A DNA stretch of 22,067 bases from Planktothricoides raciborskii FACHB-1261 (GCF_014698535.1 NZ_JACJTF010000078.1), one strand, 5' to 3'. Shown: positions 9,590 to 12,250, counted from the first letter of the stretch. The notes: generated by a model not told the origin, from the sequence alone. Numbers and translations are program-made.

Positions 9590-9930
9590 CTGGTTAAACT
9601 ACCTAGAAACCAGAGCCGAGAAACCGGGTTTCTACGAGCGCTTTCACAGTAGGGGCGACGAGCGCATTCGCCCCTACATATCCACAACAGAAACCCGGTT
9701 ATTTCGGGGACAAAAAAGCGCGATCGCCTACCCTGAACCCAGAAACGGGGTTTCTTTTTTGGTTTCTAGGGGCGACGAGCGCATTCGCCCCTACATATTC
9801 ACCACAGAAACCCGGTTTCTTTGCTTGGGGGAAATGAGCGATCGCCTGTAACTCAGAAACCAAATTTTTACCCCTGATTTAGGTCAATAGCCCAAAATGA
9901 AATGATCCGAAAACCCGGTTTTTTAGGTTT
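9590..9930. repeat. cluster of short dispersed repeats: >=7 copies of the hairpin unit CAGAAACC(C)GGGTTTC, plus a ~50-nt unit (GTAGGGGCGACGAGCGCATTCGCCCCTACATAT…CAGAAACCCGGTT) present twice in tandem
   Basis: Direct reading: AGGGGCGA-cgagcgcat-TCGCCCCT hairpins at ~9650-9676 and ~9769-9795. gaaaccgggtttc / gaaacccggtttc units at ~9613, 9629, 9700, 9741, 9804, 9850 and 9913. Confidence 0.85.
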
Positions 9931-9942
9931 GTGTTTAATGAA

Positions 9943-11046
9943 TCAATTAACTCCTGCTAGTTCTGCGGCTTGAATTTTTAAAACATTCTGCAAAATATCA
10001 AAAAATGTCTGTTTGACCTTCAAGAGTAAGGTGCAATTTTCAGCATCCAGGGTTAGGGATTTAAACCACAACTCACAGGTTTCTCTGAGGGTTTCGAGGT
10101 GTTGACAGAGGAGATGGGGAGCCAATTCTTTGGCACTCTGTTCTAGGATTTGGGGAGTAGATTGGAGTTGATGGGTGAGGGTGAGGGTGTGAGGATTGTC
10201 TCCTGGGTTTTCAGATGAGGATGGGGGGATGGCAGTGATTTGCCATTGGTCGTTGGTGTCCAGTTCAATAATGCCCTGTTGAGCGGCACGTTTTAGGAGG
10301 GCGCAACAACGAGCATGGGTGGCTTGAACACGATAAAGGCTATCAGCCGGAGTGGGTTGTCCGGCGGTGCTAATATTAATCGGAGCAACGCCGGTTAAAG
10401 GAACGCGGAAACTGTGCCAACGCAGCGCATCCATACCGATCTCTTTGATGAGTTCATCCGTGGCGATGTCGGGAATAGGATGGATTTTTTGGCTGGGTTT
10501 GTGAAAGGCGTAGAGTTTGATCGGTTGAACGATGATGAATTGAAATTGCTCTTTGGTGTAGCCCAAGCATTGCATCGCGGCATTGATAAGAACATCATAT
10601 TTGCCATAGTTAGAGGGACGTAAAACGATGATTTTGTCGCAATGTTCTTGCAGAATTTGATCATAAATAGCAAGGTCTTTTAGGAGTTGGGTATATTCGC
10701 CGTTACGGTGTTGGAGAACTCTGTCGCAGTCGTCCCTAAAGTCGGCTGTTTTGATAAACCAGTCTTTGGGTTCGTCTTTGAGGGTGGTTTGTTCGATATC
10801 GGGGGGTAAGTCGGCGGCGAACTGGCGCGACATCGAGGCTTGGTAGATTTTGGAATGGGTTTTGAGGGTTTTAAGGAAGGTTTCGGGGTTGGGGGTTGGT
10901 TTGGGAGGGGCGATCGGGGTGTGGTTGGTTTGTTGGAGTAGGCTTTTGAAGGTGCCGGTGAAGGTAAAGCGCAGATCGGCTGATGAGGTGAGTTGCTCTG
11001 GGCGGATGGGTATCGAGAGAGTGTAGGTTAGGTGTGGTTTGGTCAT
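9943..11046 (-). CDS. hypothetical protein (367 aa), no recognisable family; Pro-rich N-terminal region
   Basis: Long uninterrupted ORF with a plausible codon pattern. No catalytic motif recognised. It lies in the repeat-bounded island. Confidence 0.55.
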   Translation of the reverse strand: MTKPHLTYTLSIPIRPEQLTSSADLRFTFTGTFKSLLQQTNHTPIAPPKPTPNPETFLKTLKTHSKIYQASMSRQFAADLPPDIEQTTLKDEPKDWFIKTADFRDDCDRVLQHRNGEYTQLLKDLAIYDQILQEHCDKIIVLRPSNYGKYDVLINAAMQCLGYTKEQFQFIIVQPIKLYAFHKPSQKIHPIPDIATDELIKEIGMDALRWHSFRVPLTGVAPINISTAGQPTPADSLYRVQATHARCCALLKRAAQQGIIELDTNDQWQITAIPPSSSENPGDNPHTLTLTHQLQSTPQILEQSAKELAPHLLCQHLETLRETCELWFKSLTLDAENCTLLLKVKQTFFDILQNVLKIQAAELAGVN

Positions 11047-11188
11047 AGCGAAGTTTTGGGGTGATGAGGGTTAGGTCGGATCAACTTTCTATTTTTTTGT
11101 TTGGTGAGCCTCTTGCCTGTGGCCTATTTTGCCTTGATTTAAGATATAACTGGACTAGACCAGTCGTACAATTTTGTCAGGAGGTTGA

Positions 11189-11449
11189 TTGATGAATAAA
11201 ATTACCGTAGAAGAAATTACTCAAGATTTGAACTACTATCTTCAACGGGCAAAAGCTGGAGAAAGTTTTGTGATTTTTCAAGCAGACCAACCTATTGCTA
11301 AAATTATTTCGGCTAAATCTGAGGGTGTTTTAGAGGCTTTTGATGATTTTCGCTCCAGAATTATTTCAGAAGGAATTGATTTAGATGGCGATGAAATCTT
11401 TGCTGATGTTCGGGACTACACCCCGACTACTGAAAAACCTTGCTGGTGA
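11189..11449 (+). CDS. type II antitoxin, Phd/YefM-like (86 aa)
   Basis: Small acidic protein. N-terminus is ITVEEITQDLNYYLQRAKAGESFVIFQADQPIAKIIS. Its stop overlaps the start of the downstream PIN-domain gene (TGATG). Confidence 0.7.
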   Translation: MMNKITVEEITQDLNYYLQRAKAGESFVIFQADQPIAKIISAKSEGVLEAFDDFRSRIISEGIDLDGDEIFADVRDYTPTTEKPCW

Positions 11450-11868
11450 TGAGCGTGAAATTTCTGCTGGATACCAACATCATTTCGGAAAGTATCAAAC
11501 TACAGCCTAATGATATTTTTCTGGAGCATTTTCGACAGAATCTTGAAGAATCAGCGATCGCATCGGTGACATGGCATGAGCTTCTTTATGGGTTATACCG
11601 ATTACCGGAGTCTCGGCGAAAAAAGAATTTGTCTGATTACTTAACCCAGGTGATCCAAGCAAAAATGATCATACTGCCGTACTGTGATGCTGCCGCCGGA
11701 TGGTTTGCGGCTGAACGTGCCAGACTGACTGCTTTGGGTCGAATGCCGTCATACCCGGATGGGCAGATCGCTGCGATCACTAGGGTCAATCATTTGATTC
11801 TTGTGACTCGTAATGTTTCAGACTTTGCGGACTTTGAAGGACTGACTATTGAAAATTGGTTTGTTTAG
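11449..11868 (+). CDS. vapC: VapC-type PIN-domain toxin (ribonuclease)
   Basis: FLLDTNIIS (first Asp), …HELLYG…, …DGQIAAITRVNHLILVTRNVSDF (C-terminal acidic residues). The ATG at 11449 shares its A with the antitoxin stop. Confidence 0.8.
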   Translation: MSVKFLLDTNIISESIKLQPNDIFLEHFRQNLEESAIASVTWHELLYGLYRLPESRRKKNLSDYLTQVIQAKMIILPYCDAAAGWFAAERARLTALGRMPSYPDGQIAAITRVNHLILVTRNVSDFADFEGLTIENWFV

Positions 11869-11879
11869 AGAGAATTGAA

Positions 11880-12250
11880 GACATAGCGCAGATCCGTAAA
11901 TGTGGTAATTTACGCGGGGTGGATGGGTGGGCGATCGAGGTAGGTTTGTTGGGGTTTGGTTCATGGTGTTGTTTTGGGGTAACGAGGGTTGGGGGGCGAT
12001 CGCTTTTTTAGTGCGCGATCGCCCCCCAAAAAAGCGATCGCCTTCCTGTAAAAAAAGCAGGGGACTCAGAAACCGGGTTTCTTTTCTTGGTTCCACAGTT
12101 AACTTTGGTATTCATAAAAGAAACCCGGTTTCTTTGCTGGGATACTCAGCGGGTCCGGGTTTCTTTTCTCGCTGCCACAGTTAACTGTGATATTCACAGC
12201 CGAAACCCGGTTTCTTTGCTTGGGGGTTCAGAAACCCGGTTTCTTTGCCT
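11880..12250. repeat. second cluster of the same short-repeat family, immediately downstream of the MVP gene. It holds three HIP1 sites that form alternative hairpins, a ~50-nt unit x2 containing the palindrome CACAGTTAACTGTG, and >=5 GAAACC(C)GGGTTTC units.
   Basis: GGGGGGCGATCGC (11991-12003) pairs with GCGATCGCCCCCC (12015-12027). Alternatively GCGATCGCTTTTTT pairs with AAAAAAGCGATCGC (12028-12041). The ~50-nt units sit at ~12090-12140 and ~12170-12225. The unit at 12205-12235 is the same sequence as the unit at 9803-9830. Confidence 0.85.

Follow-up and report, generated by a model that had tools for sequence, protein, structure and literature searches.

Analysis of a 22,067-nt stretch of DNA from Planktothricoides raciborskii FACHB-1261 (GCF_014698535.1, NZ_JACJTF010000078.1), hereafter the window, revealed that two clusters of short repeats near a major vault protein (MVP) gene probably belonged to a widespread repeat family. 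A preliminary description had read the segment 9590-12250 as a repeat-bounded accessory island, with clusters at 9590-9930 (cluster A) and 11880-12250 (cluster B) enclosing a novel 367-aa protein and a Phd/YefM-VapC toxin-antitoxin (TA) module. Our results pointed instead, with a probability of about 0.72, to local arrays of lineage-wide extragenic palindromic repeats, of the repetitive extragenic palindrome (REP)/REPIN or MITE (miniature inverted-repeat transposable element) kind, rather than to the ends of a mobile island, and to a plasmid-type TA cassette that entered independently. The observation itself was largely correct, and the interpretation as a “repeat-bounded island with a novel protein” was wrong. 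Coordinates are positions in the whole window unless a locus label (L0xx/L1xx) precedes them, and the features are collected in Table 1.

The core of the repeats was the palindrome GAAACCSGGTTTC, which was present in seven copies (at most one mismatch) in the 22-kb window, all of them confined to the clusters within 9620-9819 and 12069-12243. The chance expectation was 0.02 copies, and seven copies were reached in 0 of 100 shuffles. The two clusters shared a 37-nt stretch (9795-9831 versus 12190-12226, 34/37 identical), and within each of them the units were tandemly duplicated, both as had been noticed before. Pairwise alignment showed that cluster A contained a 117-nt unit twice (9650-9766 and 9767-9883, 92/117 identical, 79%), inside which the copies of a 51-nt hairpin unit were 96% identical, and that cluster B contained an 82/83-nt unit twice (12064-12145 and 12146-12228, 65/82 identical, 79%). 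Tandem Repeats Finder reported neither the 117-nt nor the 82-nt duplication, each of which consisted of just two diverged copies. When compared with shuffled sequence, the predicted RNA folds of both clusters were strong, with z = -5.9 for cluster A and z = -6.1 for cluster B. The latter adjoined the MVP gene, as originally described, and ended 4 nt short of the stop codon. The right-hand cluster was only in part a single repeat family: this held for 12060-12250, whereas 11876-11993 was the relic of a gene and 11995-12042 was a palindrome with HIP1 sites, the left part of which overlapped the ancestral upstream region of that relic. Because the galU-like gene (+) faced the gene of the 367-aa protein (-), which resembled arginyl-tRNA synthetase (ArgRS), and vapC (+) faced the MVP gene (-), both clusters were located in spacers between convergent genes.

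To place the repeats in a wider context, a 19-mer from the unit was scanned against one genome per bacterial species (596 Gb), and all counts refer to the matches listed. At least 120 stretches were found in about 40 genomes, mostly of filamentous cyanobacteria. About 107 of the 120 listed stretches were cyanobacterial, nearly all of them filamentous, with 9-17 stretches per single genome, and the genera included Microseira, Microcoleus, Phormidium, Oscillatoria, Planktothrix, Laspinema, Calothrix, Stigonema, Prochloron, and others. The remaining matches outside the cyanobacteria (about 12) compared with about 17 chance matches estimated by hand for the 19-mer pattern in 596 Gb. The spacing from core to core peaked sharply at 50-52 nt, with the CCGGG form invariably as the left core and the CCCGG form as the right core. 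The element thus had two 15-nt ends, AGAAACCGGGTTTCT on the left and its inverted counterpart AGAAACCCGGTTTCT on the right, which enclosed 32-39 nt of interior and gave a total length of 62-69 nt. In all, 46 distinct full elements with perfect 15-nt terminal inverted repeats were collected, including the one in cluster B of the window; the manner of collection itself fixed these ends. Since AGAAACCGGGTTTCT and AGAAACCCGGTTTCT are reverse complements, the two ends form a 15-bp stem within a single strand. The sequence of the interior differed between genomes and subfamilies, too much for a reliable alignment across subfamilies, and its length was fairly constrained (32-39 nt). The ends of the element were adjoined in many copies by CCCCAAGCAA and TTGCTTGGGG as flanks; these corresponded to the “TTTGCTTGGGGG” tails of the preliminary description. 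No target-site duplication was evident, because exact 3-nt flank repeats were found for 1 of the 46 elements (0.7 expected) and repeats of at least 4 nt for none.

The elements were mainly intergenic, as 118 of the 144 scorable clusters (82%) in the scanned loci fell between genes according to a simple open reading frame (ORF) caller, and many of the “genic” clusters were chance matches in non-cyanobacteria or lay in doubtful ORFs of 100-150 aa. Two further loci, L141 and L147, were fetched via their proteins and were therefore unselected for repeats. L141, a metagenome-assembled genome (MAG) with the closest MVP, contained 11 cores in five unrelated spacers over 22.6 kb, including tandem pairs that closely resembled cluster B and, between two other toxin genes, a composite element, and L147 contained six cores in 9.8 kb. 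If the density of these two loci holds, extrapolation gives a thousand or more copies per genome, as an order of magnitude. The earlier suggestion that a MITE-like family had colonised both sides of the segment was therefore essentially right, since numerous cyanobacterial genomes carried the units between genes at a large number of unrelated sites. The same distribution, which was seen in the relatives and very probably applies to the source genome, told against the island by the standard that the preliminary description itself had set. Since the family occupies a large share of the 3' spacers, finding such clusters around a small group of genes in a filamentous cyanobacterium is no evidence for an island. 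A metagenome scan with the 25-mer GAAACCCGGTTTCTTTGCTTGGGGG gave no match, and the pattern of the full element gave none in viral contigs. The core sequences had no match among 8 million papers searched as full text, which leave out most papers of subscription journals, and a shorter 11-mer from the core had one literature match, unrelated and from E. coli. The defined unit should help to mask the family in genome scans and to avoid false calls of small RNAs or CRISPR-like arrays. A second composite repeat, in which the 15-mers stood back to back (AGAAACCCGGTTTCT-NNN-AGAAACCGGGTTTCT) between the conserved flanks TAAGGATAGGTGGGAGCAA and GATCTGGTGCTTAACTGAA, was also observed at 11 loci, ten of them in one uncultured MAG (L008, L019, L026, L039, L048, L068, L077, L097, L100, and L109) and one in a Stigonema MAG (L064).

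The “hairpin-containing 50-nt unit” of cluster A proved to be an AGAAACC element with a second hairpin, GTAGGGGCGA-loop-TCGCCCCTAC, nested at its apex, where it replaced the usual TTAAC. This hairpin (GTAGGGGCGA-9 nt-TCGCCCCTAC) was a GC-rich stem-loop, formed part of the minimum-free-energy structure of cluster A, and started with GTAG on both strands in each of its two copies. A GTAG tetranucleotide at the 5' end is the hallmark by which GTAG-tagged REPs are defined, and GTAG families of REPs have been reported in cyanobacteria (PMC3733652). The hairpin was nested at the equivalent position of the element in L025, L042, L113, and L141, and its family was present in nine further loci from several genomes. 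A variant, GTAGGGGTGATACGCGCATCACCCCTAC, was located at 3358-3386 of the window within the 5' extension of a diacylglycerol-kinase ORF; this ORF was shorter in some assemblies, which suggests that the long start is wrong and that the hairpin is intergenic. Literature matches to the REP 9-10-mers were unrelated primer sequences. Several classes of REP-associated transposase (RAYT) are present in cyanobacteria (PMC6006769), and no RAYT gene was found within the window. A RAYT-like ORF (DHLH ... YIHYNP) with its own REPIN-like arrays (GTAGGGTGCGTCGC...) on both sides was seen in Microcoleus sp. N3A4 (L125 5100-6350), and its REP differed from the hairpin of cluster A. No parent insertion sequence with the ends of the element was seen, although no systematic search was made, and the TnpB gene of the window was without AGAAACC ends.

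A comparison with known families placed the repeats close to the REP, BIME, and REPIN sequences (PMC3733652, PMC3116915, PMC2817692), with which they shared short extragenic stem-loop palindromes, a nested hairpin with a 5' GTAG tag, clusters of alternating orientation, tandem amplification, preferential location at gene 3' ends, and the lack of target-site duplication. They differed from these families in that the AGAAACCSGGTTTCT unit carried neither a GTAG nor a CGTC tag and was AT-rich instead of GC-rich, that the ends of the element were separated by a length-constrained, sequence-variable interior of 32-39 nt, and that no cognate RAYT was identified. Bacterial MITEs, such as Nezha of cyanobacteria (cited in PMC3733652), are likewise small, non-coding, multi-copy, and intergenic, and the perfect 15-nt terminal inverted repeats found here conformed to this type. 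However, the element of about 65 nt was at or below the usual size range of MITEs and was not flanked by target-site duplications. The small dispersed repeats (SDRs) of Nostocaceae, reportedly described by Elhai and colleagues in 2008 as units of 21-27 nt, are also very small cyanobacterial repeats and reportedly insert into each other and beside HIP1 sites without target duplication. Their described size (21-27 nt versus about 65 nt) set them apart from the present element. According to PMC5861425, SDRs are absent outside Nostocaceae. Two other candidates for the GTTTC...GAAAC architecture were rejected, attC sites because the ends did not fit the attC core consensus (GTTRRRY), and CRISPR repeats because no arrays with unique spacers were present. 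The AGAAACC element itself may be undescribed, yet it falls within the known range of REP, REPIN, and MITE-like sequences and held no surprise at the level of mechanism.

On this explanation, such units lie mostly in the 3' spacers of genes, where they are then multiplied by local tandem duplication, as with the 117-nt and 82-nt units of this locus. They may have spread as non-autonomous hairpin elements mobilised in trans by a single-strand transposase (HUH/Y1, of the RAYT or IS200 type), and transposition of this kind would fit the lack of target-site duplications. As a side effect, the transcripts of the galU-like, ArgRS-like, vapC, and MVP genes would carry strong hairpins at their 3' ends. 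Independently of the repeats, the plasmid-type phd/yefM-vapC addiction cassette of 752 bp would have entered where the conserved ArgRS-like gene begins, and the 118-nt relic located between this cassette and cluster B would be what remained of an earlier gene start. Several points weigh against this explanation. The exact 15-mer was kept across several cyanobacterial orders, which a binding site for a conserved host protein would explain equally well, and no transposase was linked to the AGAAACC element. The interiors folded slightly better than shuffles (mean z = -0.58), and with such weak structure the defining feature of the element is its ends, more than any conserved hairpin. The density of units per kb of spacer was 0.85 between convergent genes, about 0.75 between co-directional genes, and 0.41 between divergent genes, a roughly twofold enrichment that depends on a crude ORF caller and small numbers. 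Finally, ubiquity in Planktothricoides itself was extrapolated from the window and from the relatives L141 and L147.

The conservation of the 15-mer is central to an alternative that we consider rather unlikely, in which a conserved host protein binds the 15-bp palindrome and thereby preserves it (for nucleoid organisation, for restriction-modification, or as a signal of the uptake type), or in which selection acts on the hairpins in place, as bidirectional terminators or mRNA stabilisers, without any mobile spread. It would account for the identical 15-mer in distant cyanobacterial orders with differing interiors, for the higher density at the 3' ends of genes, and for several copies with T-rich tails and terminator-like scores, and REPs elsewhere in bacteria do bind host proteins and stabilise mRNA (PMC2817692, PMC3733652). 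However, the search pattern itself partly selected for T-rich tails, and the 15-mer alone, with a stem of 6 bp and a loop of 3 nt, would be a weak terminator. In addition, the nested repeats, tandem arrays, degenerate copies, and near-identical subfamilies within single genomes (e.g., L021, L032, and L123) are a signature of proliferation, as expected of a spreading repeat family.

The 367-aa protein, which had been called unrecognisable and novel, was readily recognised. Pfam DALR_1 (PF05746) matched with an E-value of 2.4e-10 (41 bits versus a cut-off of 22.3), which identified a DALR anticodon-binding domain, and the protein had 140 cyanobacterial homologues with 50-78% identity (Oscillatoriales, Nostocales, and others), mostly named “DALR anticodon-binding domain-containing protein”. 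The argS profile TIGR00456 was matched over positions 257-559 of 569 only (1.8e-19, 69.5 bits versus a cut-off of 261.65). The checks by remote homology and structure prediction both led to ArgRS: the PDB entry 3fnr, an ArgRS, was matched by sequence profile at 4e-13, and all of the 18 best PDB matches in Foldseek were ArgRS, a relationship used for the C-terminal part of the model. In the predicted structure, the predicted local distance difference test (pLDDT) score was about 85-93 for the DALR region, and the mean for the N-terminal 200 residues was 61.5. A motif check revealed neither a HIGH (H.GH) nor a KMSK-like motif in the 367-aa protein. A complete ArgRS catalytic domain was accordingly not found, as the N-terminal half and both motifs were missing and the argS score was below the cut-off. 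Compared with ArgRS and with NrtL (NCBIfam NF045898), the protein had the DALR domain in common, and it also aligned to ArgRS over the half of the class I catalytic domain that comes before DALR; the N-terminal domain, HIGH, and KMSK were the parts that were absent. The 367-aa protein is a truncated ArgRS paralogue in which the DALR domain and, of the catalytic domain, the C-terminal half are retained, and its scores, far below the cut-offs of both NrtL and argS, place it in a separate family. The loss of the N-terminal domain, HIGH, and KMSK makes tRNA charging unlikely, and we infer that it is most likely a non-catalytic, tRNA-binding paralogue.

The neighbourhood of the ArgRS-like gene differed in other genomes. 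In three genera (L127 2053-7893, L128 1-5541, and L129 2780-7558), the gene was directly downstream of a giant protein of 1592-1946 aa, for which DUF4114 and PPC domains were recorded in L127, and a DUF4114 gene was just upstream in L129. The giant protein and the ArgRS-like gene may be a conserved gene pair, and its occurrence in three other genera indicates that the present neighbourhood is not ancestral. At the DNA level, the coding strand of the ArgRS-like gene (9943-11100, -) was C-rich and G-poor, with a GC skew of +0.25 to +0.53 on the + strand. The leader CCCCCCAACCCTCATCACCCCAAAAC and the first ~90 nt were 84-89% identical in DNA between genera, and nucleotides 226-360 of the gene were 92-96% identical, versus 65-69% for the protein as a whole. 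This high conservation of DNA may be due to a regulatory or RNA-level feature. In the closest relative, L147 (5707-7763), the ArgRS-like gene was split by an IS630-like insertion (HTH_23 and DDE_3).

Upstream of the ArgRS-like gene, the earlier identification of a Phd/YefM-VapC module was confirmed for the toxin, whose PIN domain (PF01850) scored 28.0 bits versus a cut-off of 23.6 (3.6e-6), and stood less firmly for the antitoxin, which matched PF02604 at 15.5 bits (E = 0.015), below the cut-off of 29.8, although its NCBI name, Phd/YefM, agreed. The NCBIfam models of VapC matched at 7.5e-21, below their cut-offs, and the antitoxin had no sequence match in the PDB. The ATG of vapC overlapped the antitoxin stop codon by 1 nt. 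Over the full 752 nt, the cassette was 93.1% identical in nucleotides to Planktothrix loci (L144 and L146) and to the plasmid NZ_LR882935.1, and the VapC protein fell into a 90%-identity cluster with Planktothrix and Coleofasciculus proteins. The plasmid copy was on p1 of P. agardhii NIVA-CYA126/8, beside TrbI/VirB10, and this conjugative-type plasmid was typed as MPF_T. The identity to the plasmid stopped sharply at 11124 and 11875. Like plasmid Phd/YefM-VapC modules, the cassette consisted of a small antitoxin ORF overlapping a PIN toxin ORF, with a near-identical copy on a P. agardhii plasmid that carries type-T mating-pair genes, and the chromosomal copy was located where TA modules accumulate. 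It differed from them in the weak match of the antitoxin to the Phd/YefM profile and in the specificity for tRNA(fMet), which NCBIfam suggested with a score below the cut-off. On the strength of this DNA identity, the cassette is a horizontally acquired, plasmid-type type II TA cassette and the sole clearly imported piece of the segment.

A stretch of 118 nt, beginning exactly at the end of the cassette, was recognised as a relic of the 5' end of an ArgRS-like gene, and its alignment to the resident 5' end scored 77, versus 20 +/- 2.6 in shuffles, so that a diverged direct repeat (10959-11075 / 11876-11993) bracketed the TA cassette. The relic was 85% identical to the L128 orthologue and 76% identical to the resident copy, and multiple alignment showed that its N-terminus was of the “PAQITAS” type, whereas the resident N-terminus was of the “PEQLTSS” type. 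A simple recent duplication therefore does not account for the relic. One possibility is that the resident 5' end, or all of the gene, arrived together with the cassette; the other is that the locus formerly held two paralogues in tandem. No clear mosaic boundary was found along the ArgRS-like gene when sliding-window identity was compared with two orthologues. The locus neatly illustrates the capture of a plasmid addiction module by a chromosome, as its borders are exact and the relic of the disrupted gene start is still present. The ArgRS-like gene of L147 shared 87% DNA identity with the resident one, and upstream of it were a 222-nt piece of the vapC of this cassette (89% identical) and three further TA modules (PIN/DUF2281, PIN/MazE, and DUF2442/DUF4160). 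The vapC fragment and these three modules mark the 5' side of the ArgRS-like gene as a site of TA accumulation. Two bolder readings, which we consider improbable, are that AGAAACCGGGTTTCT ... 32-39 nt ... AGAAACCCGGTTTCT represents an undescribed class of cyanobacterial hairpin elements served by a dedicated enzyme or binding protein, and that PIN-toxin modules insert specifically at the 5' end of the ArgRS-like gene, which would link a tRNA-binding paralogue to toxins that cut tRNA.

The borders of the cassette bear on the idea that 9590-12250 is one accessory island, with the ArgRS-like gene and the TA pair inserted together between galU and MVP and the clusters as its terminal repeats. The “inserted cassette” of the preliminary description did exist in the form of the 752-bp TA insert, but its borders were 11124 and 11875 (or the 118-nt repeats) and not the repeat clusters. 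The 37-nt similarity between the clusters was the consensus of the family, also present in other genomes, rather than a terminal repeat specific to an insertion. The four ORFs examined contained neither an integrase nor a transposase domain, there was no mobility gene inside 9590-12250, and the GC content of this segment was not distinct. The ArgRS-like gene was conserved across cyanobacterial orders, and in L147 it was found with the vapC fragment upstream and with neither MVP nor galU adjacent. All nine Planktothricoides contigs that covered the locus had this arrangement, and no empty site was found in the comparison with L141, though synteny there was lost at the MVP stop codon. This loss is one of two observations that favour an island, since L141 (MVP 94% identical) shared the order cytochrome c, DUF6932, HTH, and MVP and then broke off just past the MVP stop codon, at the site of cluster B. 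The other is the greater similarity of the relic to L128 than to the resident copy, which would fit the arrival of the resident 5' end, and possibly of the whole gene, with the cassette, but the sliding-window comparison gave no clear boundary for such an event. Overall, a single island appeared very unlikely.

The location of cluster B had also prompted the speculation that the structured units encode small RNAs, perhaps a bacterial equivalent of vault RNA with a functional link to the neighbouring MVP homologue. Small RNAs are components of eukaryotic vaults, and cluster B was both strongly structured and adjacent to the MVP stop codon. MVP homologues with 75-94% identity were widespread in filamentous cyanobacteria, where they have been noted before (PMC3762200; bioRxiv 10.1101/872010). 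In the two closest relatives, the 3' spacer of MVP held a different hairpin (L141) or a 31-nt tandem array (L143, MVP 91% identical), both unrelated to cluster B, and in L141 the units were in five other spacers and none beside MVP. In every other scanned genome, the units were at many spacers next to unrelated genes. Rfam, Vault included, gave no match at E <= 1 in 9590-9930 or 11880-12250, no promoter-like site was found inside the clusters, and terminator-like matches in them were at most about 1.6 sd above shuffles. The literature search turned up no study that examined a bacterial vault RNA. With nothing conserved downstream of MVP in close relatives and no Rfam match, the vault-RNA idea was left without support, and its probability is close to nil. 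A search for bacterial vault RNA should not begin from these repeats.

Table 1. Positions of the genes, repeats, and inserted sequences at the locus
Feature	Position	Strand	Description
galU-like nucleotidyltransferase	8697-9581	+	
Repeat cluster A	9605-9936		within the 361-nt spacer from the galU-like stop (9581) to the ArgRS-like stop (9943)
AGAAACCSGGTTTCT palindromes in cluster A	9619-9633, 9741-9755, 9806-9820		9741-9755 with one mismatch
Degenerate palindrome copies in cluster A	near 9691 and 9911		
HIP1 sites in cluster A	9720, 9838		
GTAG-tagged REP-type hairpin, copy 1	9649-9677		GTAGGGGCGA-cgagcgcat-TCGCCCCTAC; centre of the AGAAACC-bounded element 9619-9701
GTAG-tagged REP hairpin, copy 2	9766-9794		in the second 117-nt tandem unit; 96% identical duplicate
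367-aa ArgRS-like gene	9943-11046	-	
Resident 5' end of ArgRS-like gene	10959-11075	-	29-nt leader and first 88 nt of the coding sequence
TA cassette	11124-11875	+	752 bp; operator/promoter with palindrome ACTGGACTAGACCAGT, antitoxin, toxin
85-aa antitoxin	11192-11449	+	
139-aa PIN toxin (vapC)	11449-11868	+	
ArgRS-like 5'-end relic, 118 nt	11876-11993	-	leader and ~29 codons, frameshifted, not a functional ORF
Palindrome with three HIP1 sites, 48 nt	11995-12042		GCGATCGC at 11996, 12015, 12034
Repeat cluster B	12060-12250		spacer between the vapC stop (11868) and the MVP stop (12251)
Complete 66-nt element in cluster B	12068-12133		
Tandem 82-nt duplicate in cluster B	12146-12228		left end degenerate
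Additional palindrome in cluster B	12230-12244		
874-aa MVP homologue	12251-14875	-	stop codon 12251-12253

The window matched the P. raciborskii chromosome CP159837.1 at ~246-267 kb. It contained 39 HIP1 sites (GCGATCGC), versus 0.17 expected, and was typical HIP1-rich cyanobacterial DNA. A pair of DUF6932 and HTH_3 genes was located immediately upstream of MVP both in the window (15244-16208) and in L141 (8534-9501), and this pair could be a conserved partner of MVP or another TA-like pair. A lone TnpB gene (OrfB_IS605 / Cas12f-like TNB domain) was present at 6247-7458, in the identical position in all Planktothricoides contigs retrieved, and a second location was not found among them. Further simple or tandem repeats were located at 776-916, 2700-2827, 4334-4526, and 20138-20278. 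The other simple and tandem repeats of the window included the 13-nt unit GGGTTAATTTTCC in eight copies, arrays of the heptamer CCCTACA, and a 72-nt unit in two copies, and facing TTGTTG / CAACAA arrays gave rise to spurious microRNA matches in Rfam.

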